DNA from: a virus
Taxonomy: Duplodnaviria > Caudoviricetes
Strand: one strand, 5' to 3'
Length of the DNA stretch: 60,075 nucleotides
IMG/VR virus record: IMGVR_UViG_3300009508_000005
Span: 1 to 60,075 of that record
Part shown: positions 124 to 50,440 of the stretch, one piece after another
Numbering within the stretch: the stretch's first letter is position 1
Layout of the letters: each line of letters starts with the position of its first letter
Notes under the pieces: model-generated
The model's database searches: none
Told to the model about the DNA's origin: nothing
The model's input: the letters and a program-made list of their open reading frames with translations, nothing else
Position numbers and translations under genes: made by a program

Positions 124-1004
124 GCCACCATGCCCTCGTCTGTCTTGGCGAACGCTTCCACCAGCAGTGCTCTGCCCTCTGCGTCCCGGCGCTTGGGGCT
201 ACGCTTCATTGGGATCGCCACGCCGTAGTAGCGCAGCATGTCCGCGAACTTGACGTTCGAGCGCAGCAGCTTCTGCGTCATATCCATACGCACGCCGTGC
301 TCAGCGCTGGGGTCCACGCCCAGTATGTTGGCGACTTCGGACAGTGTGGCAGCTTTGCGCTCCGCTAACTCGATACCCATAGCGCGGAGCAGGGGAACGT
401 CCAGTGCCAGACGCGCCTCGGCCCACATCTTTGTAGCGAGGTGGGCAATAAACAGCTCTGTCTTGGGGAACTTGGTCACCATCGCGTCCCACAGCATGCC
501 GCAGATTATGCTGTCCTTCACGCAGTAGTTGCCGTAGGCGGCCAACTCGTGGGGGTTGAAGTCAAGGCGGCGTTTGCCTGCTGCCCTTATCACCTCGTCC
601 CCCTTGTCGATAGGCAGGTTGTACATTCGAGCCAGGGCGCCCAGCGCGTTGCTCAGGTTCTTGCCGTCCGGCCCTTTGCTGCCGTGCAGGCGGCGCGCTA
701 GTTGTAGCGTACAGCCGTAGTACGCGGGGCGCACACCCAGCACCTCGGTGAGAACGAGCGCGTCGAACAGGCTGAGGTTATGGCCGATGACGAACATCTG
801 CGACCAGTCGAACGACTGCGCTATGTCCCGCAGGTACTCCAGCGTGCCGGTGTACCACGTCTGGGGTTGCCCCTTTATTCCTATGGCGAACCCGATCAGA
901 TCGAAGCGCTCGTCTCGAATGTATTCCTCGGCTGTCATGTTGGTTAGTGAGTACTTGGTAGCTGGGTCGTAGAATGTTTCGGCGTCGAACGTCCAATAGT
1001 TCAT
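1..1004 (-). CDS. DNA polymerase family A, N-terminal part (3'-5' exonuclease domain); continues across the join to 58797, ~719 aa total
   Basis: ATG at 1004 gives MNYWTFDAETFYDP (ExoI DxE motif); in frame with 58797..59975 through the terminal overlap; not in the ORF track because it runs off the edge. Confidence 0.9.
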   Translation of the reverse strand, partial: MNYWTFDAETFYDPATKYSLTNMTAEEYIRDERFDLIGFAIGIKGQPQTWYTGTLEYLRDIAQSFDWSQMFVIGHNLSLFDALVLTEVLGVRPAYYGCTLQLARRLHGSKGPDGKNLSNALGALARMYNLPIDKGDEVIRAAGKRRLDFNPHELAAYGNYCVKDSIICGMLWDAMVTKFPKTELFIAHLATKMWAEARLALDVPLLRAMGIELAERKAATLSEVANILGVDPSAEHGVRMDMTQKLLRSNVKFADMLRYYGVAIPMKRSPKRRDAEGRALLVEAFAKTDEGMVALTEYEEADEDTNLIVQALATARLGTKSTIAESRVQRFLDI

Positions 1005-1927
1005 GCTTCGCTCCCTGTGTTACCACGGTCTTCCCACCCTTGGCGGTAGCCGCGCTCCAGATCACGCAGTTGCTGGCTCTCGTCTTTCCAGCTTATTTCT
1101 TTGTCGGTGTAGCCGCAGCTGCGCAGGAAGGCGTTGACTTGCTCGTCGGTTGGGGCGCCATTACGTGACTTACTCATGGTTTGCGCCCCAGATAGTCGAA
1201 TTGATTCCGAGCCCATGTCAGCATAGTGCTCCCCGTCGTTGCCGTTGCGGGCTATGTTGTCCATGCGCGCGTCTTCGGGGTATCCGAGGTCCATACCTAC
1301 GAACCCCGCCACGGTGTCGAGCACATCCCTGGCGAGCCCCGCGTTTGTTGCTGTGTTTGTGGGGCCCGGTCGGCTGGATTCATAAGCGTGAATAAGCACC
1401 TCACAGTTAGGTCTGTGATCCTCGTATTCTGGTACACCGCAAGCGGAGCAGCAGGCGCTATTCACAGTTAGGGGTTCATCGCCCAGGCCAACCACGTTGC
1501 GCTCCGCGTGCGTGTAGTGGGTCACGTCCGCGTCTTTGTGTCGCTCGATCAGGCTGGCGCATATCTCGTTCAGGGACTCGATGTGCTTGCCGATCTGCAC
1601 CTTGGGGCGTGCTGGGCGGTCATCGGTGAGCATATCGTTGAGCATGGCGTCGCGCAGCACAACCAGGCTGCTGATGGCTTTGGTGATGTGGGATAGGCTG
1701 GATGCGTCGTCGATGTCCTCGCCCTCCCACCACGCGATCAGGTGCCGCAGCGTGGCGTCGTAGTAGACGCTGGCGCGGACACCCGCGTGCCGATAATTGT
1801 GGCGGCCGTACTTGCTGGCGCCCTCAAACATAGCGGTGGCGACTTCCAACATGACGTTGGCCGGTAGTACGGACATCGACACTTTGCCAATAGCTACGGC
1901 GTCCTTGGGGTTGGTGGGCTTATTCAT
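1001..1927 (-). CDS. dATP/dGTP diphosphohydrolase-like (DUF5664-type) domain protein with C-terminal extension
   Basis: NPKDAV..K, GASKYGRHNYR, YYDATLRHL.AWWEGEDID..S.LSH; start taken at MNKPTNPK; stop overlaps pol ATG (ATGA). Confidence 0.8.
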   Translation of the reverse strand: MNKPTNPKDAVAIGKVSMSVLPANVMLEVATAMFEGASKYGRHNYRHAGVRASVYYDATLRHLIAWWEGEDIDDASSLSHITKAISSLVVLRDAMLNDMLTDDRPARPKVQIGKHIESLNEICASLIERHKDADVTHYTHAERNVVGLGDEPLTVNSACCSACGVPEYEDHRPNCEVLIHAYESSRPGPTNTATNAGLARDVLDTVAGFVGMDLGYPEDARMDNIARNGNDGEHYADMGSESIRLSGAQTMSKSRNGAPTDEQVNAFLRSCGYTDKEISWKDESQQLRDLERGYRQGWEDRGNTGSEA

Positions 1928-2312
1928 TGGGCTTGTCCTGTTGTGTGGGTACGAAACCAACCTCGGCGCCGATGAATACCTCGTCGGGTATGTTCTCCCA
2001 CTCGTTGCGCAGTACGGTGAACTCGCCTTCGTTCCAGTAGCGCAAGAACGCCATAGAATCGTCGTCGCCCTCGCAGTTCTCCAACGCGTAAGCGATTGCA
2101 TATACAGCGGCGTCACTACCCGTGGTGGGCTCATCCGTTGTAAGCTCCATACTGCCCACGTGATCCATGGGCAGTAACAACGGGCGGCGGTGGTCAAACT
2201 CACCGTGATCTACGTCCGCAACGTCGAGGAAGTGCGAGGCTATATCCAAGCAGGCTTCCTCCAGGTTTTTCGCGTGTATGACGGTGTTGGCGGTGAAGTA
2301 AAACTGTTTCAT
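1920..2312 (-). CDS. Hypothetical protein
   Basis: Overlap-coupled acidic ORF in minus-strand operon. Confidence 0.65.
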   Translation of the reverse strand: MKQFYFTANTVIHAKNLEEACLDIASHFLDVADVDHGEFDHRRPLLLPMDHVGSMELTTDEPTTGSDAAVYAIAYALENCEGDDDSMAFLRYWNEGEFTVLRNEWENIPDEVFIGAEVGFVPTQQDKPNE

Positions 2313-5075: not shown

Positions 5076-5323
5076 GGCTTGTCCCCCGGTTGCTCTGCTT
5101 CGGGTGCGTATGCGTCGGCCCAGGCGTTCAAAAGTCGCGCCAATGTGCGCGCATTTTCGACGCCGGGTATGGCGACCATTTCGTCCGCCTCGTCGTCGCA
5201 TATCCACACGCGACCTTGCCCCTCGGCGCCATCGAAGGTGATCCGTACCGGGCGCTCCATTCCGATGTTCGACGCCTCACGCGGCGGCGGTGGAAGGATG
5301 ACGTCTTCGATAAAATCGGTCAC
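5072..5323 (-). CDS. Hypothetical protein
   Basis: GTG start with GGAG SD; coupled. Confidence 0.55.
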   Translation of the reverse strand: MTDFIEDVILPPPPREASNIGMERPVRITFDGAEGQGRVWICDDEADEMVAIPGVENARTLARLLNAWADAYAPEAEQPGDKP

Positions 5324-5580
5324 AGTTTGTTCTCCAATTGCTCTAGGGTATCCACCACAGCGCGCCAATACCGTGCGTCCTGCATAGCCTCGGTGGATAT
5401 GGCGGCGAAACGGGCGTCTTTGTATGTCCGCGCGTCGTGGCGTGAGTAGCGGGCTATCTGCACAGCTTTGCCCACCTGCCCCCGCGCGGATTCTATCTGC
5501 GCTTGGCGGGTCTGGCGGTCCCTGCGCTCCGCAGGTGATGGGTAGTACGTTGGGTAGTTAGATTTACTTGGGGCGCTCAT
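5320..5580 (-). CDS. Hypothetical protein
   Basis: Coupled ORF starting MSAPSK. Confidence 0.55.
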   Translation of the reverse strand: MSAPSKSNYPTYYPSPAERRDRQTRQAQIESARGQVGKAVQIARYSRHDARTYKDARFAAISTEAMQDARYWRAVVDTLEQLENKL

Positions 5581-5879
5581 GGTTGCGCCCTCGCAGTTTC
5601 GCGGACGGCGGCGCGCCAATCCATATCGGTCGCTAGCACCCGGGCGTGTTCCACGTCGTCGACGCCAAGTCCCAACAATCCGCACGCAATGCGCGCTTTC
5701 ATCGTCCGTGCGAGTAATCGGGCGCCTTCCAGGTCCAGAGTTCCTAGTGCCACGGCTGTGCCGTTGCGCTTGCGCGTGAACACCGTGTGCACTCCGTCGC
5801 CCTGGGGCGTTACTGTAACCTCGTGCTGCGCGGCGTCTATCGCCTTGCCTATTGCTATTTTATGCGTTGGTCGTTTCAT
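5577..5879 (-). CDS. Hypothetical protein
   Basis: MKRPTH start with GAGG SD. Confidence 0.55.
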   Translation of the reverse strand: MKRPTHKIAIGKAIDAAQHEVTVTPQGDGVHTVFTRKRNGTAVALGTLDLEGARLLARTMKARIACGLLGLGVDDVEHARVLATDMDWRAAVRETARAQP

Positions 5880-10443: not shown

Positions 10444-11151
10444 TTACAAAACTTGGTTTAGGTAGCGGCCCCACTGGTCGCCCATTGCTGCGGCGATACC
10501 GGGGAATGTGGCGGACCTTTCTAGCCATCGGCTGGCTGACGGGCCTAGACGGTTCTGCCCGCTGTCGGTTTGATTCGCCCATCGTTTTGCCTGCTTGCCG
10601 GTCGCGGTGGTAACTATGCGCGGATTAACCCATTCGCCCTGTGGCGGAACAACGAGCGGCGGCAATCCTTTCATCCATAGCCCGGTGCCCTTGCTGGCGT
10701 CGTCGCCAAACATATACGGGTGTATGACCTGCGACGGCGGGCACACGTTGCGGTTTAGCGTTGAGGGCGCGGGGTTCTCGATGCCTAGCAGAATATCCAG
10801 ATCCAGCAAACGCTGGAAATTCTCGAAAGCCTCGCGCTGCGCGGCCCTGCGTGCTGCACCCGTCAGTGTTCCGGGCTTGACGCGCTGATGATACCCCTTG
10901 CCGGGATAGCGTGCGAAGTCTGGGTCTTTGAGCGCCCACACCGACGCGACATTCAAAAAGGTGCACATAGGGTGGAACACGCCCGCATCCCACTTGCGCA
11001 GGGCCAAGGCGTCCCATACATCCATTTGCAAATGTTTGTCGGACGCGCCGCGAGGTGGCAGCAGGTCGCAAGTCCACACGTCGTGCCCTTGGCGCTCGAA
11101 CGCCTCGCGGGTCAGTTGGCAGGCTGAGTAGCCTATGATTACGCTGGCCAT
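10444..11151 (-). CDS. Short phage-type DNA (cytosine-5) methyltransferase-like protein
   Basis: REAF..GHDVWTCDLLP, WD..VFHPMC (motif IV-like), IENP (motif VI), HPY.FGD..SK.T.LW, RS.TFPGIA.AM..QW. Confidence 0.7.
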   Translation of the reverse strand: MASVIIGYSACQLTREAFERQGHDVWTCDLLPPRGASDKHLQMDVWDALALRKWDAGVFHPMCTFLNVASVWALKDPDFARYPGKGYHQRVKPGTLTGAARRAAQREAFENFQRLLDLDILLGIENPAPSTLNRNVCPPSQVIHPYMFGDDASKGTGLWMKGLPPLVVPPQGEWVNPRIVTTATGKQAKRWANQTDSGQNRLGPSASRWLERSATFPGIAAAMGDQWGRYLNQVL

Positions 11152-11366
11152 GATTCAACACCCATATCGTTTAGGAACGGGATCACTTGGTGGAACTCCA
11201 TGTACTCGGTCAGCGGGGTGATGACTATTTTAGTCCGCTTACCTACGCGCACTTCGTCCGCGCGCACAATCTGTATTTTACCCTGTTTCACGGGTACGCC
11301 GAGGTTGAACCCCAGACGGGTCTGGGCGGCGCGGACGGCGGCTTGTAGTGCGGCTATGTTGCTCAT
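11139..11366 (-). CDS. Hypothetical protein
   Basis: CCCGGAG leader. Confidence 0.6.
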   Translation of the reverse strand: MSNIAALQAAVRAAQTRLGFNLGVPVKQGKIQIVRADEVRVGKRTKIVITPLTEYMEFHQVIPFLNDMGVESWPA

Positions 11367-11398
11367 GCTGTGCGGCTCCGGGTATTAGGTAAAGCCGC

Positions 11399-11545
11399 TT
11401 ACGCGGCTATGATGCTGATTTTACGTGTAACGAACGCGCCGTTCTTTACTACGCGGTAAAATGATGAATACACGCTGAATACCAGCTGGTCCTGGTTGGC
11501 CTGTGATGCAGCTACTGCGCGAACTATTGAACTGTCGATAATCAT
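11399..11545 (-). CDS. Small hypothetical protein (48 aa), first gene of accessory operon
   Basis: MIIDSSIVRAV...; CCCGGAG leader; just downstream of promoter. Confidence 0.5.
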   Translation of the reverse strand: MIIDSSIVRAVAASQANQDQLVFSVYSSFYRVVKNGAFVTRKISIIAA

Positions 11546-11590
11546 GGCGGTGGCTCCGGGTGCTGTTTGTTTATGTAATCTACAAAACGA

Positions 11591-11619
11591 ATAATAGCAT
11601 GTAATGACGTCATTGCGAC
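11591..11619 (-). promoter_or_regulatory. Extended -10 promoter (TGcTATTAT) with palindromic operator AATGACGTCATT in spacer
   Basis: Extended -10 at 11591-11599; 12-bp perfect palindrome at 11603-11614. Confidence 0.55.
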
Positions 11620-11660
11620 GCCGTGGTTAGATCGTTTTAATCTAGGCCACGGCGCTGTTA

Positions 11661-12140
11661 TTACTTGCTGCGCATCTGCTCCAGCAATGCATCATTGTGA
11701 GCTTTAGCCTCCGCTGCTAGACGGTCGAACTCGTCGGGCTGCGCTGCCTGGGCGAAAACGTCGGCGGCTGTAGCTGGTTGCGGATCCGCTGCGGGCTGCG
11801 CGGCTGGCGTAGGTGCGAAGGTCATCGGTGTGGGCTGCTGCGGTGCGGTCCAGTTCGCCAGCTGCTCTGGTGTTGGTCGTGGCGAGTTATCCGCCAGTGG
11901 TCTGAGTGTGGTGGGCCAGCGTTGCAGATATGCGGTGTACTGCTCCGGGGCGTGCGTGTGCAACCACTCTTTGAAAGGTAGCGTCAACAGCCCTGCGTCG
12001 GTCTCCATCTGGATTAGCTTATCCAGGGCTGTGCGTAGGGCTGACGACGTGTCGCGCGCTCCCAGGCTCTTTAAGTACGCTAGGTGGGACTGATTAACGC
12101 GACCCTGTAGTTGCACGTTGTTTGATGGGCGGTTCTTCAT
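11661..12140 (-). CDS. Putative ribbon-helix-helix DNA-binding protein with P/A/Q-rich tail
   Basis: MKNRPSNNVQLQGRV (beta) NQSHLAYLKSL (helix) TSSALRTALDKLI (helix); CCAGGAG SD. Confidence 0.5.
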   Translation of the reverse strand: MKNRPSNNVQLQGRVNQSHLAYLKSLGARDTSSALRTALDKLIQMETDAGLLTLPFKEWLHTHAPEQYTAYLQRWPTTLRPLADNSPRPTPEQLANWTAPQQPTPMTFAPTPAAQPAADPQPATAADVFAQAAQPDEFDRLAAEAKAHNDALLEQMRSK

Positions 12141-12187
12141 GGCGGTTACTCCTGGTTGTGTGAACTCGTAGATTAGCAGACAGTAGG

Positions 12188-12955
12188 GCAAAACGTATAC
12201 GCTTTTGATAAACACGTATACCGATTGGCTTAGATTTGAGGGAAAGCGTATACGTTTCCGCTAATTGGGACTAAAAGCGTATACCGATTGGCTTAATTTA
12301 AGGGTAAACGTATACCGATTGGCTTAATTTAAGGGTAAACGTATACGCTTTTAGCTCTATTTAGCCTTAATTAGCCTTATTTTAGTGTGAAAACGTATAC
12401 AGAAACCGTGCTCGCCTTAATACAATCTGCACAGTTTAATACAGTTGGGCCTCGTAAGTACTTGATTTCTAAGGTATTAGGCAGACTAGGCAGAAAAGCA
12501 ATGAAAAAACAGTATAGTATTCCCCAATGGGAAGGGAAACGTATACGTAATGGCTAGGTTAATTAGTGGGGAAGGGCGGGGCGCTACATCCCTTATCCCA
12601 CCTGGCTTAGCCCGCGCACGCGCGTAGTATGTTCTAAAAAAACGTTACTATTATTACTATTCTGCCTGAAAAGGCTCTAGCATGGGCATTTCAGCTAGGC
12701 AAAACACCAGCAGATCCTCGAAAAGTGTGTCATTACAACGAAAACGTATACGCTTTTGGCTGGAATAAGGCCCAAATAAGCCTAAATAAGCCTAAAAGCG
12801 TATACGTTTTGGCTTAAATAACGCTAATTAGGGCCAATCGGTATACGCTTTTAGTGGAAACGTATACGTTTTTAGCCAATCGGTATACGCTTTTAGTCTT
12901 ATTTAGCGGAAACGTATACGCTTTTAGTCCTATTTAGTGGAAACGTATACGTAAC
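12188..12955. repeat. Mirror-symmetric array of 15 GTATAC-core boxes; candidate replication origin, packaging or partition site
   Basis: Cores at 12195,12216,12248,12279,12310,12341,12395,12541,12746,12800,12841,12862,12883,12914,12945; left and right arms are imperfect inverted repeats. Confidence 0.9.
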
Positions 12956-12958
12956 CAG

Positions 12959-13025
12959 GCGCGCTGCACGTTAAATCCCACGACTAACTCCCCACGTTCC
13001 CCGCTACATTTAACGTGCAGCGCGC
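12959..13025. repeat. Perfect 18-bp inverted repeat (GCGCGCTGCACGTTAAAT) with 31-nt loop
   Basis: 12959-12976 is the reverse complement of 13008-13025. Confidence 0.85.
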
Positions 13026-13416
13026 TACGTACAGTGCTTAGCCGCTAAACCCCCCACATACAGCCCTTATTTAGCATAGCCCCCGACTGGCCAGCTTAGT
13101 GCTGCCCGCTAATTAAGCCCCCAGCTAACAGGGCGTCCTGCTCAGCGCTAAGCGCTTAACCCAAGCACCCAGCGGGAAGGCCCCCACCACCCAGGACAAC
13201 GGCCAGTCCACACCACCAGGAAGGCTTAACGTCCCTTGGGCTAGGAGACGGGGTGCTGGGGGGTGAGCGCGGCGCGGGGTATATGCTTATCCCTTCCACG
13301 TAGACCACAGCACCCAATTGCCGGAACTGACACACCTTAATACAGAATTTCCCCGCTAAAATTTCTAGGCTAATTTTTCCCAGCCCTAAATTTCCCTGTT
13401 AATTTTAGCCCCGCGC

Positions 13417-13445
13417 TTGACGACTTAATTCCCCAGGACTAATAT
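13417..13445 (+). promoter_or_regulatory. Sigma70-like promoter TTGACG-N17-TAATAT
   Basis: Near-consensus; preceded by A/T tracts; opens the rightward arm. Confidence 0.65.
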
Positions 13446-13546
13446 CGCTCCTGCCATCCTCTCCGGGTATGGAAGTAGGGGCTGTCGCTTGGCGGTGGCA
13501 GCCCCCGCGCTTAACTCGGAGAACGGATCAACCTGGAGACTAGCCA

Positions 13547-14032
13547 ATGATTATTAAGCACCAGCAACAGCCAACTAATAACTCCTGCGTTTCCGCCTGC
13601 ATCGCTATGCTGACAAATCAGTCCGCAGACAAAATTGCGGGTTTGTACAACGACAAGTACCACGCCCAAGAAATTACCGAGCGCCAGATACTCAGCATGG
13701 AGGGGATACCCTACTCTGAGTTCTACCCCATGAACCCACAAACAGTGCAGCTCCCTGGCGTGTACTGGGTGGAAGTCCCAAGCCTAAATCTGCCCGGTAT
13801 AAATCATGTGCTGCTCATGGAGGCCGACGGTGAGTTCTACTGGGTACACGACCCGCAGCACGGGACAGGTAAAAAATACTACTCAGCCCAAGACCCAGAG
13901 GATCCGCTTGGATTCAAGCTACTGTCCTGGACGACCCTCGCCCATGTGCCGCTCAGCTTCATAGCCGAGAAGTACGGCGTACCGGTACCCGAGGTAGTCT
14001 CGGCACCCCAACACACTGACGCAGGTAACTGA
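13547..14032 (+). CDS. Peptidase C39-like (papain-fold) protein
   Basis: QQPTNNSCVSACIAML (Q-x5-C), HVLL, HDP catalytic-triad pattern; GGAG SD. Confidence 0.7.
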   Translation: MIIKHQQQPTNNSCVSACIAMLTNQSADKIAGLYNDKYHAQEITERQILSMEGIPYSEFYPMNPQTVQLPGVYWVEVPSLNLPGINHVLLMEADGEFYWVHDPQHGTGKKYYSAQDPEDPLGFKLLSWTTLAHVPLSFIAEKYGVPVPEVVSAPQHTDAGN

Positions 14033-14034
14033 CC

Positions 14035-14364
14035 GTGGAAGAGCAAACGATAGAACTAGCAACCGTAGTCCAGAACTGGCACAAAAAACGCATGGACCAG
14101 CTGGAAGTCCTGCGCGGTGTGGAGGAAGGAACTGAACTCCGTTTCGACGCAGGGAGCACCGATGTGCCTCCGCTGTCGGGTCGGGAAGCAGATCTGTTCC
14201 GACTCGGGATGATCACCGGTATGGATATGTTCAAAGCGCTGCCGTTCACCTTGGAGCGCAATGAGACCGACGATGACGATGATCTCGACGATGATCTCGA
14301 CGATGACGATGATCTCGACGATGATCTCGACGATGACGCGCTTGAAGACGAAACGCACGGCTGA
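14035..14364 (+). CDS. Hypothetical protein with highly acidic repeat tail
   Basis: AGGT SD, GTG start; DDDDDLDDDL repeats. Confidence 0.7.
   Translation: MEEQTIELATVVQNWHKKRMDQLEVLRGVEEGTELRFDAGSTDVPPLSGREADLFRLGMITGMDMFKALPFTLERNETDDDDDLDDDLDDDDDLDDDLDDDALEDETHG
14269..14337 (+). repeat. Tandem GACGAT/GATCTC repeats encoding poly-Asp/Leu
   Basis: Directly visible. Confidence 0.85.
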
Positions 14365-14410
14365 TATGATCAGTCGCGGCTTGCCCTCCGACACGGACAT
14401 CAGGGGGTAG

Positions 14411-14730
14411 GCTGCATTGCAAAGACCCGACGGGGGACGCCCCGAAATGCGTGAGCGCGGCGGCTCAGCGACTCGCTCGAAAGGCAGGTATCGTGGGTTC
14501 GATTCCCACCACGCACCTCGGGTCTTTGCAATGCAGCACGCAGTGAAATTGGTTGCCGAGGGAAATCAGTAGTGAACGGCAAGGTGCGCACCAAGCCGCT
14601 AGCGAAACAAAGTACTTGGGGCAGGCTGCGCAACTACCGGACTCGACGCGAGTACGCCAATTGGGTCAATGAAAACAGTACCGGACCCGGTAGATGCCGC
14701 TGGATCATACCCAGCACCAATTTCACTGCG
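14411..14730 (+). ncRNA. Candidate structured ncRNA: tRNA-like module within 20-bp stem (14411-14537) plus second domain within 15-bp stem (14539-14730)
   Basis: Perfect inverted repeats 14411-14430/14518-14537 and 14539-14553/14716-14730; canonical T-arm GTGGG-TTCGATT-CCCAC; no credible ORF. Confidence 0.6.
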
Positions 14731-14775
14731 CCCCGCTAGAAAGGCACATGGGAATCCCCACCTACCCACCTCCGC

Positions 14776-14804
14776 TTGACCCCCTGTTGCAAACGCTCTA
14801 CTCT
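14776..14804 (+). promoter_or_regulatory. Sigma70-like promoter TTGACC-N17-TACTCT
   Basis: Hexamers with 17-bp spacer upstream of 14862 ORF. Confidence 0.5.
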
Positions 14805-14861
14805 TCGTGCTACACGGGCGACGCCCGCTGATCCCTGAAATCATGCACGAGGTACTACCCC

Positions 14862-14993
14862 ATGGCACTAGCGACCGATAAGTACACCCAGACCGAAACG
14901 CGTGAGAACCAAGCGCGCAAACTCAACAAGCTGCTGGAGTACATCGAGGCGCTGGAAGCGCGCATCAAAGTCCTCGAAGACGCGGCTGCTTAA
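14862..14993 (+). CDS. Small coiled-coil protein (43 aa)
   Basis: MALATDKYTQ...LEARIKVLEDAAA; GAGGT SD; below ORF-track cutoff. Confidence 0.65.
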   Translation: MALATDKYTQTETRENQARKLNKLLEYIEALEARIKVLEDAAA

Positions 14994-15023
14994 TACCCCC
15001 GAAACTGCTTACGAGGTGTAACT

Positions 15024-17282
15024 ATGCTGGGTACGATCAACCCGCAGACAGCGCGTCTGCACACTCCGACGGTTGTGTACCCAGGCAGGGACCACGTCAC
15101 CACGGTGCAGGTATCCCGGTTCGATGGCCGGCGTTACCTGCCCGTGAACTTCGACGACCTCACCCGCGTAGTACTGTCGTTCTACCAACTGGACGACGTC
15201 ATACTGTTTGACTCCGCCACCACGGCGGACGTATTCAGCTGGGCAGGGGATACGATCGAGATTGATCTGACCCTGTTCGCCATGCCGGCATCGGTACTCC
15301 GGTGCCAGATCCTGCTGTACGACGCGGAGCACGAGCGCGGCCAAGTGCTTGTCGACGACATCGACACCGTACTGGAGTTCGACTTCCGCGACATCGTGGT
15401 CTCGGGAACTCTGGCGCCTCCTGTGGGTACCCCGGCTACTCTCGCTGATTTGCAAGCGGCTATGGACGCTCACGTCGCTGAGGCGGATCCGCACACCCAG
15501 TACCTGAACAAGACCCGTGGCGACCTACTGTATGACCCACTGGGGAGTGCTGCGACTGCCGCAGGCGCGGCTGTAAGCGCCCACGTGGATGCGACCGACC
15601 CGCATACCCAGTACCTGAACGAGACGCGGGGCGACAGCCGGTACGTGGCGCTGGAACCGGGCAAAGGACTGTCGGCTAACGACTTCACGGACGGTCTGAA
15701 AGACAAGCTCGACGAGGTAGCAGATGGCGCGACAGCTAATCAGGCCGACGCCTACCTGCTAGCTCGTGGAAACCACACCGGTACCCAGCTCGCAGCCACT
15801 ATCAGCGACTTCGACTCCGCAGCGGAAGCAGCGGCCCCGGTGCAAAGCGTGCAGGGCAGAGCAGGCGCCGTAGTTATTACAGCTGCCGATCTGAGCCTGG
15901 AAGAGGTAGATAACACCAGCGATGCAGATAAGCCACTGAGTGACGCGGCAGTGGCTGCGCTTAATCTCAAGCTGAACGCTTCGCTAAAAGGCGCAGACAA
16001 TGGCCTTGCTGAGCTGGATAACGACGGCAAGGTTCCGCTAAGCCAGATCAGCGACGCAGTGCTTGGGCAGCTGAGCTATCAGGGGTTGTGGAACGCGAGC
16101 ACCAACACGCCAACACTGCCAAGCACTCCAGCCCAAAAGGGCGATTACTACATTGCCAGCGTCGCCGGCACTCAGTTCGGTATTGAGTTTGATGTTGGCG
16201 ACTGGCTGGTATCTGACGGCGCGGCTTGGGGTAAGGTAGACAACACCGACGCGGTGGCCTCGGTCAACGGCAAGAAAGGCGCTGTCACAATTACCAAGGC
16301 TGATGTTGCGCTGGGTAATGCCGACAATACCGCGGACGCCGATAAGCCGGTTAGCGGCCCGCAGCTTACAGCGCTTAATCTAAAAGCCGACAAGACCGAT
16401 GCCCGGTTCACTGACGCCCGCGAATGGACTGCAACCGAAGTGCCACAACTGGAAGCCGAAACAGGCGAGGCGACTACCGCGCGCAAGTGGACTTCGCTGC
16501 GCGTGCGGCAGGCGACCACGGCTTGGTGGGCTGGGCTAGGCACTTCATTCGGCAGAGGCTTTGTGAGTCTTGTAGACGCGGCGGCGGCGCGGGTGAAGCT
16601 GGGGCTTGGTACATTCGCTACGGCGAACTACGACACAGCTCCTTTCTCAAATCTTATGCCTGATAGCGGGCGATTTGCCGGGAAGATGAACCCGCTATCA
16701 CTAACAGTCGGGGCGTTTCAATCATCCCCGTTGTTGCCCGGATTAAATGGGGGCACGCACGCTAGCGGCGGCAAGTTCGCGCACGGCGCGGGTGGAAGTA
16801 CAGAGGCCGTTACTAGCTTACTTGCGGCTATGGGTCGAGCCGGGGCTATTTATGGAGTGGAGTTTTATGTTGATGAGTTCACCTGCGGCTCTGGTACAGC
16901 CAACCCGAGTGTTGGTTTAGATGGTGTCACACGGTATTACGCAGTAACTGATACATCCGGGCGAGCTATGTTCCAAGCGAAAGGTAAGAGCACGTTTGCG
17001 ACTTGGCTAAGAGTCGCCGAGGGAAGTATGCATTCCCGGGCGGATGGGCAAATAAAGAATGGAGTGCCCATTCCCAGCTCGACTGCATTTACTCCGGCAG
17101 ACGGGTGGTTCCATTTCCGGACAGTTCAGACGTCTACAACGGGGTACGCGACAAATAATCCGGGGTTCGCAGGGTTGCCAGGGACAAAGATTCAGATGGC
17201 ATGTTCCGGCTTTTTCGGTGGGATTGTCGATACCGGCATTCATGCGTCGCCACTAGCCGCAAACAACGAATTGATGGGGTAA
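15024..17282 (+). CDS. Tail fiber protein
   Basis: H...DPHTQYL repeats, GKGLSANDFT, VQSVQGRAGAV/VDNTSD.DKP fibre repeats, G.WNASTNTP. Confidence 0.88.
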   Translation: MLGTINPQTARLHTPTVVYPGRDHVTTVQVSRFDGRRYLPVNFDDLTRVVLSFYQLDDVILFDSATTADVFSWAGDTIEIDLTLFAMPASVLRCQILLYDAEHERGQVLVDDIDTVLEFDFRDIVVSGTLAPPVGTPATLADLQAAMDAHVAEADPHTQYLNKTRGDLLYDPLGSAATAAGAAVSAHVDATDPHTQYLNETRGDSRYVALEPGKGLSANDFTDGLKDKLDEVADGATANQADAYLLARGNHTGTQLAATISDFDSAAEAAAPVQSVQGRAGAVVITAADLSLEEVDNTSDADKPLSDAAVAALNLKLNASLKGADNGLAELDNDGKVPLSQISDAVLGQLSYQGLWNASTNTPTLPSTPAQKGDYYIASVAGTQFGIEFDVGDWLVSDGAAWGKVDNTDAVASVNGKKGAVTITKADVALGNADNTADADKPVSGPQLTALNLKADKTDARFTDAREWTATEVPQLEAETGEATTARKWTSLRVRQATTAWWAGLGTSFGRGFVSLVDAAAARVKLGLGTFATANYDTAPFSNLMPDSGRFAGKMNPLSLTVGAFQSSPLLPGLNGGTHASGGKFAHGAGGSTEAVTSLLAAMGRAGAIYGVEFYVDEFTCGSGTANPSVGLDGVTRYYAVTDTSGRAMFQAKGKSTFATWLRVAEGSMHSRADGQIKNGVPIPSSTAFTPADGWFHFRTVQTSTTGYATNNPGFAGLPGTKIQMACSGFFGGIVDTGIHASPLAANNELMG

Positions 17283-48847: not shown

Positions 48848-50440
48848 TTAATCGTCGAAGCCGTCGAACACACTAGGATCAACGCCGGTCATTACTTGCG
48901 GCTGGTTCACAGGTTGCTGTGGAGCCTGCTGTTGCTGGGGTGCAGGCTGGCCGAAACCACCACCGCCGAACGCGTCGGGTGCTGATTGCTGCGGCTGCTG
49001 CTCGTACTGCTGCGGCTGCTGCTCGTACTGCTGCGGCTGCTGCTCGTACTGCTGTGGAGCTGCTTGCTGCTGTGGAGCTGCTTGCTGCTGTGGAGCTGCT
49101 TGCTGCTGTGGAGCTGCTTGCTGGGTAGTAGTGGGGCGTGGCGCTGCGCCACCCAGGCCCATTGCCTCGTCCTCAGCCATTTCCGCTTTGGTGCGACGCG
49201 CCTTACCTTCCATAGCCTTACCCGGCACACGGCCCGATGGCAGTACCGCAGGGATGCCACCTGCAGGTGCAGTCTGTTGCTGGGGAACCGCTTGTTGTTG
49301 TGGAGCCACTTGCTGCTGTGGAGCTGCGCCACCGAACACGTCGGCTGCAGACTGCGGAGCTGCGCCACCGAACACGTCGGCTGCTTGCTGCGGTGCTTGC
49401 TGCTGCGGTGCTTGCTGCTGCGGTGCTTGCTGCTGCGGAGCCACGTACTGTTGTTGCGGTGCTTGCTGCTGCGGTGCTTGCTCAGGGTTGTAGTTGTTGG
49501 GCGCAGCCGAACCGTAGCGCTCGACCGGAGGTGCCATGTACTGCTGGGGGGCTGCTTGCTGCTGGGGGGCTGCTTGCTGCTGCGGGGCTGCTTGCTGCTG
49601 CGGGGCTGCTTGCTGCTGCGGCTGCTCGTACTGCTGTGGAGCTGCTTGCTGTGGAGCCACGTACTGTTGTTGCGGCGCCTGCGGTTGGTGCGCAAGGGCT
49701 GGTTGGGCTGGAGCTGTGGGCATGCGCAGCACTTGGACGTCAGCCAGACCAGCGAACATCCGGGCTTCCTCGGTGCTGTGGCGCTCTACGACGACGGGCA
49801 TGGCCTGCTCATTCACGTAGCCTACCGGGCGAAATTTCAGCTTGGGGTACGACGCGTCCTGGTCGAACGTGAATTCAGTCACGACCGCGAAGTAAGGAAC
49901 TTGCGGGGGCAGGTTACGCAGGAACCCGCCAAAGTCGGCCATCGAGGCTGCGGGAATAGCCAGCCGCAGGATCTCGCCCCGTGGGTTATTCGGGTCGATA
50001 ACAGCGATGGTCTTCTTGTCGGTGCATGCCTTGGACTTCGCCTGGGTCTGCGGGTTGATCTTCGACCCGAACACGTTCTGGGGGCACGCCGCGCAGGTAC
50101 CGCACTGGGGCTTCTCACTATCTGCCCGTGGGGTAACACCATCGTCGGAGGCACACACTGGTGGAGACGCGTCGTCGTCCGGGTTCCACGCGGTGTCGTA
50201 GAACGTCTTGGTCATGCCGGGGTTAGCGTGCAGGATGACGAGCTGCAGGGCCAGCGCGTTAGTAGGCGTCTTAACCGAGCCTCGTACCACGGCGAAGCGG
50301 CCACCTTTGATGCTAATGTGGTTGACGGACTCACCACCGGTACCAGCGGCAGCGGCTTTGTTAGCTTCGGCAGCGGCGGTTGCATACTGCTGCATGTAGG
50401 CAGGGAGCTGCGCCTGCTCAAATGGGATTACTTGGTTCAT
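48848..50440 (-). CDS. Single-stranded DNA-binding/annealing protein with very long Gln/Ala/Pro-rich linker and acidic tail
   Basis: ISIKGGRF, P.C.SDDG..P, C..CPQN.FGS, KAC, F.FD....PKL.F; ends FDGFDD. Confidence 0.75.
   Translation of the reverse strand: MNQVIPFEQAQLPAYMQQYATAAAEANKAAAAGTGGESVNHISIKGGRFAVVRGSVKTPTNALALQLVILHANPGMTKTFYDTAWNPDDDASPPVCASDDGVTPRADSEKPQCGTCAACPQNVFGSKINPQTQAKSKACTDKKTIAVIDPNNPRGEILRLAIPAASMADFGGFLRNLPPQVPYFAVVTEFTFDQDASYPKLKFRPVGYVNEQAMPVVVERHSTEEARMFAGLADVQVLRMPTAPAQPALAHQPQAPQQQYVAPQQAAPQQYEQPQQQAAPQQQAAPQQQAAPQQQAAPQQYMAPPVERYGSAAPNNYNPEQAPQQQAPQQQYVAPQQQAPQQQAPQQQAPQQAADVFGGAAPQSAADVFGGAAPQQQVAPQQQAVPQQQTAPAGGIPAVLPSGRVPGKAMEGKARRTKAEMAEDEAMGLGGAAPRPTTTQQAAPQQQAAPQQQAAPQQQAAPQQYEQQPQQYEQQPQQYEQQPQQSAPDAFGGGGFGQPAPQQQQAPQQPVNQPQVMTGVDPSVFDGFDD
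48985..49680 (-). repeat. Tandem 15-, 18- and 21-nt repeats encoding APQQQ, AAPQQQ and QQYEQQP
   Basis: Directly visible. Confidence 0.9.

Follow-up and report, generated by a model that had tools for sequence, protein, structure and literature searches.

What does a cluster of fifteen palindromic boxes do at the only point of a phage genome where transcription diverges, and which protein reads it? These questions are raised by a DNA of 60,075 nt from a virus of the class Caudoviricetes (Duplodnaviria), the IMG/VR virus record IMGVR_UViG_3300009508_000005, which was analysed at its full length (hereafter the window), comprises the entire record and is rated 100% complete. The box array lies beside the gene of P0001, a small ribbon-helix-helix (RHH)-like protein. 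We compared the array and this gene with those of related phages, in which the boxes and the first strand of the neighbouring protein change together, and weighed a tentative role as a replication origin against a transcription switch, a centromere and a packaging site.

A bipartite box array at the divergence point

The genes of the phage form two blocks. Leftward genes run from 12140 downward, across the record ends, to ~44.5 kb and make up the early block, with a primase-polymerase (prim-pol)/DUF927 helicase, an SNF2 helicase, pieces of a family-A polymerase (PolA) and nucleases, while the rightward (structural/late) block starts at 13547 and includes a tail fibre, the small and large terminase subunits (TerS and TerL), a portal, a major head protein, a 2118-aa virion protein and an endolysin. 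Since the leftward block ends at 12140 and the rightward block starts at 13547, the array occupies the single divergence point of the genome, as had been proposed in a first-pass annotation of this DNA that was made from the letters. The region is laid out as follows:

11661-12140, minus strand: gene that opens the leftward (early) block and encodes the 159-aa RHH-like protein P0001; AGGAG lies 7 nt before the ATG
12149-12175, minus strand: leader of the RHH-like gene, with the AGGAG ribosome-binding site at 12149-12153 and a weak possible -10 hexamer, TAATCT, read by hand at 12170-12175
12187-12408: left (gene-proximal) arm with seven boxes, GTATAC cores starting at 12195, 12216, 12248, 12279, 12310, 12341 and 12395
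12409-12536: core segment b, box-free, with an A-rich run at ~12490-12512
12537-12551: single central box, core 12541-12546
12552-12737: core segment a, a candidate unwinding element, with a GC-rich island followed by an AT tract (12632-12661), partly alignable to the cores of the relatives G001 and L056
12738-12955: right (distal) arm with seven boxes, GTATAC cores starting at 12746, 12800, 12841, 12862, 12883, 12914 and 12945
13417-13445, plus strand: promoter-like site TTGACG-17-TAATAT for the rightward block, a consensus match only, 470 bp outside the array

Where 8.86 ± 2.66 copies of the hexamer GTATAC are expected, the window has 20, a count reached by none of 100 shuffles, and 15 of these sites are clustered in 12195-12950. 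Their core-to-core spacings (21, 32, 31, 31, 31 and 54 bp on the left, 146 and 205 bp across the core, and 54, 41, 21, 21, 31 and 31 bp on the right) are exactly those of the first-pass annotation. Beyond the hexamer, the full box is a 16-bp near-palindrome, AAA(A/G)CGTATACG(C/T)TTT, and the variant half-site GCCAATCG is found at five places among the box half-sites. When the box 15-mer was searched genome-wide with up to three mismatches, all 22 strand-matches fell in 12190-12955 (1.15 expected; 0/100 shuffles gave as many), and the extended form is missing from the other five GTATAC sites of the genome.

The boxes are helically phased, with a Rayleigh R of 0.957 at 10.5 bp for the left seven (matched by 4/5000 random sets), 0.941 for the right seven (equalled in 11/5000) and 0.884 at 10.4 bp for all fifteen (equalled in 0/5000). 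The phasing suspected at first sight is real, as a property of this phage and not of its family. The array measures ~750 bp in total and consists of two arms around a 345-bp core. Mirror symmetry, which had also been claimed, holds in that parts of the arms are inverted copies of each other (12243-12296 versus 12871-12924, 93% over 54 nt; 12318-12372 versus 12774-12828, 80%). The spacings, however, are mirrored only loosely, running from the outside in as 21, 32, 31, 31, 31, 54 on the left and 31, 31, 21, 21, 41, 54 on the right, and the symmetry does not extend to the family. The last box is directly followed by an inverted repeat (12959-13025) of two perfectly matching 18-nt halves with 31 nt between them, which has no trailing T-run and is therefore probably not a terminator.

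In base composition the region stands apart from the rest of the genome. All of the 12 lowest-GC 200-bp intervals lie within 12101-13000, and 12632-12661 is the only stretch with at least 21 A/T in 25 among the 60,075 bases. The core had been described as AT-rich, and it does hold this one strong 30-nt AT tract; at ~44% GC, however, it counts as AT-rich only by comparison with a genome of 60% GC, it includes a GC-rich island (~12560-12625), and the arms are the most AT-rich part. The AT tract contains TTACTATT twice.

Repeats of this kind might also arise by chance or in assembly, and a 31-bp tandem unit within the left arm (12275-12305 and 12306-12336, 97% alike) does break the k-mer contigs of sequencing run X1, possibly that of the source sample, at 12307/12317. 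This is the sole break in that run, in which one contig covers 11000-12307 and another (Logan) 12317-14000, and contigs of run X2, from another sample and another study, are 100% identical to the array sequence minus one 31-bp unit (joint 12277>12309). The presence of the array in independent metagenome contigs excludes an assembly artefact; with the shuffles quoted above and homologous arrays at five other loci, the chance that the array is spurious is negligible. In run X1 the contig with the core and right arm has a mean word depth of 40.7 versus 24.3 for the 22.6-kb contig to its left, a difference that was not used as evidence, contig depth not being copy number. A megablast of the array region against phages gave no match, and Rfam (E up to 1) returned only sub-threshold rows for 11000-15200.

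Covariation of the boxes with the first strand of the neighbouring protein

P0001 combines an N-terminal, predicted DNA-binding dimer domain (about residues 1-64) with a Pro/Ala-rich linker and a C-terminal helix (about residues 125-159). The public gene call has only 115 aa, begins at Met45 and thus misses the N-terminal domain. Two copies of residues 1-80 were predicted to form a homodimer with an interaction score (ipSAE) of 0.82, the highest of three controls scoring 0.00; the runs share at least 94% of contacts, and the predicted local distance difference test (pLDDT) score of the partner is at least 85. The same mark was reached by 20/30 proteins solved as one-chain pairs and by 1/23 solved as single chains, a comparison that is rough here because P0001 was run with its own alignment. 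The predicted interface comprises residues 5-27 and 31-64, and the helix around residues 38, 42 and 45 meets itself and residues 14-23 of the other chain, a contact pattern that we, and not a fold search, read as suggesting an intertwined RHH dimer. The nearest Atlas clusters include RHH_1, RHH_5, RHH_9, VapB and NikR, all of them below the bar and to be taken as leads only, as are the Atlas structure rows for RHH_1, VapB and NikR with template modelling (TM) scores of 0.46-0.52.

Pfam and PHROGs hold no family for P0001, which accordingly matches none of the known initiator families (Rep_3, O, RepA, winged-helix helicase). A word-indexed search of 5.8 billion proteins together with HMMER on 1.84 billion representatives found only P0001 itself, and tblastn of P0001 and of its homologue in G001 against phage and plasmid records gave no match.

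Relatives were identified through TerL, which led to 43 IMG/VR loci and one cultured phage, Pseudomonas phage Rollin (74.5% identity), the only cultured member of the clade that was found; a literature search returned no paper on it. The Rollin record begins inside an array of other boxes, with an N gap there, and has a syntenic gene for a 141-aa protein of the same build as P0001. In the metagenomic relative G001 (TerL 76%), whose genome measures 61 kb, all 13 copies of another box are confined to 657 bp (the reversed pattern, as control, gave 0), and a syntenic 188-aa gene adjoins them. The proteins of the three phages align weakly (27-30% identity). The G001 protein has 29 relatives, or 39 by profile search, in which residues 27-75 and the C-terminal helix are near-invariant and residues 1-26 fall into discrete types. 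At six loci, where protein and array could be compared, five types of N-terminal strand are found, each with its own unrelated box:

Window: strand VQLQGRV, box AAACGTATACG
Rollin: strand VKFSLSL, box a 25-bp AAAGGTAG...CTACCTTT palindrome
G001 and L055: strands YTRSVYL and YTRSAYL, box CGGTTAAGCATT in both
L056: strand VRQNTLL, box ATCTTCCGTGCCACG
L057: another strand type, box CTAAAGTA(T/A)TACTTTAG

The change is most sharply delimited between G001 and the L056 type. Their proteins are identical at 11/25 positions in residues 1-26 and at 48/49 in residues 27-75, and the DNA between their boxes (core segment b) is identical at 115/122 positions, the boxes having been replaced in place. This covariation of strand and box is our main reason for proposing that the neighbouring protein reads the boxes by its N-terminal strand, which would determine box specificity; the boxes are very probably its cognate sites. 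It also agrees with the dimer prediction in supporting the earlier description of the gene product as an RHH domain with a flexible tail. Co-conservation of array and gene in relatives had been put forward as a check, and the outcome is stronger than expected, since the specificity co-varies. The layout is kept among relatives (Rollin and several metagenomic contigs), while box and, judging by the sequences, protein specificity swap together.

In the layout that these arrays share, the arm beside the gene is followed by a first segment without boxes, by between one and three central boxes, by a second box-free segment with an AT tract and by the distal arm. Across the first box-free segment, the box-to-box distance is 146 bp in the window, 145 bp in G001, 144 bp in L056 and 145 bp in L057. 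G001 has three central boxes where the window has one, and site spacings of 21-22 and 31 bp recur.

Other proteins of the phage are conserved across these changes, among them, in the window, G001 and Rollin, the SNF2 helicase, PolA and proteins of 109, 134 and 530 aa. Over residues 1-180, TerS shares 65% identity with its counterpart in G001 and 69% with that in Rollin. The prim-pol helicase reaches 59% in both comparisons (residues 1-980 and 1-972, respectively), and the two phages have unrelated boxes; neither protein, therefore, reads the boxes. The same comparison bears on a function as packaging site (pac) or genome terminus, which the first-pass annotation had entertained and in which proteins would bind the arms on either side of a cleavage site, or the arms would be inverted terminal repeats. 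Two bound arms around a cut site are indeed the plan of SPP1-type pac, the Rollin record starts within its array, and the contig of a further relative, G002, ends beside the homologous region. Such record ends are, however, accounted for by assemblies breaking at repeats. TerS is conserved at full length and does not follow the site, and contigs of two runs pass through the arms and core without loose ends or a pile-up of molecule ends, although contigs cannot show the ends of molecules. Moreover, the 123-bp end repeat of the record lies inside the PolA gene, so that the cut in the record is an assembly overlap of a circular or permuted genome and not a terminus. We therefore regard a packaging or terminus role as very improbable.

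Other arrangements were also seen among the relatives. L057 has tandem RHH-like paralogues (614-985 and 982-1368) beside one array, the first of which has 123 aa and a different C-terminal half (also P0032/P0033), and its array consists of one palindromic box in five copies and a second palindrome in one. The region 130-1930 of L053 (G002; TerL 60% identical) is without the RHH/arm system; G002 has the palindrome TTCCCTAG..TAGGGAA four times, one per small intergenic gap, and a cluster of TACTATT/AATAGTA repeats whose orientation is opposite on the two sides of a centre. L030, a distant, integrated relative of the same phage type as the Burkholderia anthina prophage L061, has ~10 CTAGAGGAA boxes in both orientations around a box-free centre (5260-5640), 2 kb upstream of TerS, and no RHH-like neighbour was seen there. 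Repeats upstream of TerL in L043 and L034 were rejected as arrays, since their spacings are divisible by three, as in coding repeats.

An origin reading weighed against a switch and a centromere

What, then, would such a complex be for? We tentatively prefer a reading in which the main role of the array is to mark and organise the replication origin. One N-terminal RHH-like dimer would sit on each 16-bp palindrome, the first strand reading the box. Because they face the same side of the helix, the 15 sites of this phage could assemble into a single wrapped nucleoprotein complex, which would cover the one AT-rich stretch of the genome that is free of genes, where the early and late units point away from each other. 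The conserved C-terminal helix on its flexible Pro/Ala linker would recruit a conserved partner, for which the prim-pol/superfamily 3 (SF3)-type helicase is our most plausible guess, while divergent transcription on either side would aid melting. The promoter-proximal box would probably let the RHH-like protein also regulate its own gene.

An origin is supported by the replication set that the phage carries (the prim-pol/DUF927 helicase, the SNF2 helicase, PolA and nucleases). As in iteron origins, repeated sites lie beside an AT-rich, presumptive unwinding tract in the window, and relatives have the same layout; the presumed site binder, in contrast, matches no initiator family that is known. 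An adaptor that recruits a conserved partner would fit the build of the protein, in which the end presumed to read DNA varies and the terminal helix beyond the Pro/Ala linker is conserved. In the lambda initiator O, likewise, the DNA-binding N-terminus varies and the C-terminus that meets the helicase loader is conserved. The lambda origin is described as a set of iterons and an AT-rich tract bound by O dimers to form an O-some, helped by nearby transcription (PMC7466680). Unlike in lambda, where four iterons (six in Shiga toxin (Stx) phages) lie inside the O gene, the present sites, 13-15 in number, form two arms outside the gene, P0001 is no O homologue, and a gene for a P-type DnaB loader was not recognised with Pfam and PHROGs.

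A further comparison is with the origins of Staphylococcus aureus pathogenicity islands (SaPIs), for which 6-12 iterons split by a central AT-rich region are reported (PMC9371898). By that account, the SaPIs share with the present phages the two sets of iterons around an AT-rich centre, the cognate specificity and a phage-related SF3-type helicase with a primase, and their helicase reads 5-6-bp iterons through a winged-helix C-terminal domain of its own (PMC9371898). Here, in contrast, the helicase stays 59% identical across unrelated boxes, and recognition would fall to an RHH protein encoded apart from it. The array also exceeds those of the SaPIs several times in length and is built of 16-bp palindromes. 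Papillomaviruses offer an analogy for such a division of labour: the dimeric, hinged E2 protein binds palindromes beside an AT-rich origin, recruits the SF3 helicase E1 and also regulates transcription. The likeness is one of analogy only, E2/E1 being unrelated folds of a eukaryotic virus and the contact between RHH-like protein and helicase being hypothetical here. A fully specified version of the origin reading would make the phage system a counterpart of E2/E1, with recognition by a separate RHH adaptor whose first strand is swapped together with the 13-15 iterons to give replicon specificity types, and whose C-terminal helix loads the prim-pol/SF3 helicase on the AT-rich core; that all of this holds we consider rather unlikely.

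A number of observations weigh against an origin bound by an RHH protein. Most RHH proteins are repressors or centromere binders, and we know of none that serves as a phage origin-binding initiator; no description of an RHH/iteron module in a phage origin turned up in a literature search. RHH models of Pfam match 0/21 members of the protein family (E up to 5), so that P0001, whose intertwined N-terminal homodimer is predicted but which fits no curated sequence model of the fold, is called RHH-like and not a proven member. Sequence and profile searches of the PDB gave chance-level rows only, and AlphaFold2 monomers are poor (pLDDT 57.5 for P0001 and 41.2 for the G001 homologue), as is expected of an obligate dimer; the putative RHH fold rests on the dimer prediction and the sequence pattern. 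Near-matches to DnaA boxes number eight in the window against 6.7 expected, none of them in the array, and the GC skew has no clear switch there. Phasing is not significant in G001 (R = 0.55; 638/3000 random sets as good), in L057 (1139/3000) or in Rollin (2333/3000, with four boxes only), and the count for L056 (2470/3000) is flawed, the palindromic core having been counted twice. Mirror symmetry is not kept either, the boxes of G001 being nine forward and four reverse and mixed in both arms. Finally, the covariation comes from six loci, four of which are short metagenome contigs with their other genes out of view, and many small early genes also differ among the window, G001 and Rollin.

The main rival is a transcription switch or immunity-like module, in which the RHH-like protein would act as an early repressor or activator that coats the arms, perhaps looping the core, and so shuts off or times the divergent units or blocks superinfecting phages of the same specificity; swapped types would then amount to heteroimmunity. 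RHH proteins are mostly transcription regulators, and repressor/operator pairs are a classic case of diversifying specificity. The RHH-like gene, moreover, is the first of the early block and directly adjoins the array. Box 1 occupies the position expected for the -35 element of this gene, before the -10-like hexamer, as does the gene-proximal box in L056; the consensus scan called no promoter there in the window. A perfect TATAAT is found in L056, G001 and L055. In the RHH repressors MetJ (on met-boxes), omega of pSM19035, CopG, and Arc and Mnt of P22, the N-terminal strand reads bases, binding is cooperative on repeats and the genes are autoregulated. Their operators, however, are short, with 2-10 contiguous sites that overlap a promoter, unlike the 15 spaced sites over 750 bp here and unlike a protein with a long linker and a conserved C-terminal helix. 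Another parallel is phi29, for which the early-to-late shift is described as proceeding through a multi-site nucleoprotein complex between divergent promoters (PMC3100819).

Against a switch, sigma-70 consensus scans detected no promoter-like site inside the arrays of the window, G001 and L056. Both candidate promoters are located outside the arms and directed away from the array, so that simple repression would not call for 13-15 upstream sites. The last box and the -10-like hexamer are separated by a variable distance (~12 nt in L056, ~30 nt in G001 and ~105 nt in L057, by hand count), the right arm is without a promoter within 470 bp, and there is no box elsewhere in the genome. An integrase was not found. 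A switch is thus possible, though not the explanation that we would expect to hold.

The remaining rival likens the array to a ParR/parC centromere. The RHH-like protein would wrap it as a segrosome, and its C-terminal helix would couple the complex to a filament-forming or ParA-type NTPase, so far unrecognised and encoded by phage or host, that positions or segregates the phage DNA, for instance in a carrier or plasmid state. As described for ParR, an N-terminal RHH domain binds the repeats and a C-terminal end meets the partner (PMC2099191), which is also the layout of P0001. ParR/parC is further reported to wrap the repeat DNA as a solenoid on a protein scaffold, to comprise specificity families that do not cross-react and to use contiguous direct repeats (PMC9426499). 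The likeness to the type II (ParMRC) partition systems of the R1, pB171, pSK41 and pCW3 family thus extends to a small N-terminal RHH dimer, a C-terminal partner end and many repeats beside the protein's own gene. Architecture and covariation fit the same combination here, a repeat array with a presumed N-terminal-RHH adaptor that has a C-terminal tail. The array is also unique in the genome, bipartite and phased, and a Burkholderia chromosome carries an integrated distant relative (TerL 46% identical), which indicates temperate members in the wider group.

The differences are nevertheless substantial. P0001 has no sequence similarity to any ParR or Pfam model, and its family has no homologue in 72,556 plasmid records. 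The sites of the window are palindromic, lie 21-54 bp apart over 750 bp, against the contiguous direct repeats described for ParR (PMC9426499), and enclose a conserved AT-rich core. The replicon, moreover, is a 60-kb phage with replication genes of its own, neither an integrase nor a plasmid replication gene was found, and the gene content resembles that of a virulent phage. A partner NTPase was not seen: the ParA-type ATPase model PF13614 gave 0 matches at E up to 0.1, its control being found in 14/14 genomes, and Pfam scans of 20 leftward-block open reading frames (ORFs) showed no actin- or tubulin-like protein, Tubulin/TubZ having had no dedicated search. A 402-aa ORF is without actin- or tubulin-like likeness in the Atlas. 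The search with StbA_N (ParM) gave 0 matches, but its control also gave 0/14 genomes. The earlier statement that neither ParA nor Rep is recognisable stands for ParA (PF13614) and for the known Rep families. A centromere is accordingly improbable, and we return to the origin reading as our working preference.

The locus had also been offered as a candidate for a new system, which now appears too strong a term for a new protein family with a new version of the logic of RHH proteins on repeat arrays and of iteron origins. The putative DNA-binding family comprises ~40 clusters at 90% identity, without a Pfam, PHROG or PDB relative. Its apparent specificity determinant can be read from natural variants, in which the box and a stretch of ~20 residues change together against a near-identical background of protein and surrounding DNA, and it offers a ready system for how RHH strands encode sequence recognition and a possible source of orthogonal protein/operator pairs. 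Should the array prove to be an origin, it would be the first control element mapped in an almost unstudied clade of 60-kb phages, with a kind of initiator architecture for which no phage example has been described. As a switch or a centromere, the complex would still be unusual in its size and bipartite form.

Other motifs and neighbouring genes

Short motifs of a second kind are dense between and beside the boxes, whatever the box type. GCTAA/TTAGC, GCTTAA and GCTAATTAAGC occur in this way at 12150-13450 of the window and in the homologous regions of L001, L050 and L056, GCTAA alone with 18 copies in the array region of the window (~10-fold enriched), and a second, conserved protein may bind them. 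A G-rich element to the right of the array, similar to GGGG..TGGGGGG..GCGCGG...ATGCTTATCCC (window 13240-13300, L001 1230-1300, L050 2380-2450, L009 30-100) is kept in all four genomes, including G002, which is without the RHH/box system, and is followed by runs of A/T tracts up to the rightward promoter-like site. On the other side, the 115-bp gap after the RHH-like gene (11546-11660) holds a long hairpin and a TGACGTCA-type palindrome, and at the corresponding position in Rollin and G001 lies ACTATAGGC..GGCTCTAG. The window contains no tRNAs, and a search for CTAGGCAR gave nothing above chance.

Two genes of the leftward block have no counterpart in G001 or Rollin. The first (1001-2203, minus strand) encodes a 400-aa protein with the N-terminal domain of a dATP/dGTP diphosphohydrolase (PF18909, E 2.6e-25), which hints at nucleotide-pool editing or a modified base. 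The second (10444-11151, minus strand), four genes from the array, is DNA methyltransferase-like (phrog_757, E 4.9e-36; no Pfam match); GTATAC is a palindrome of the type that DNA methyltransferases target, and no link to the phrog_757 protein was found.

The 402-aa ORF mentioned above and a 530-aa ORF gave no PDB or Pfam match, and the former none in the Atlas either. Within the ORF of the 530-aa protein (48848-50440, minus strand), the 10-mer GCAGCAAGCA recurs 12 times at 49061-49607, which suggests a coding tandem repeat.

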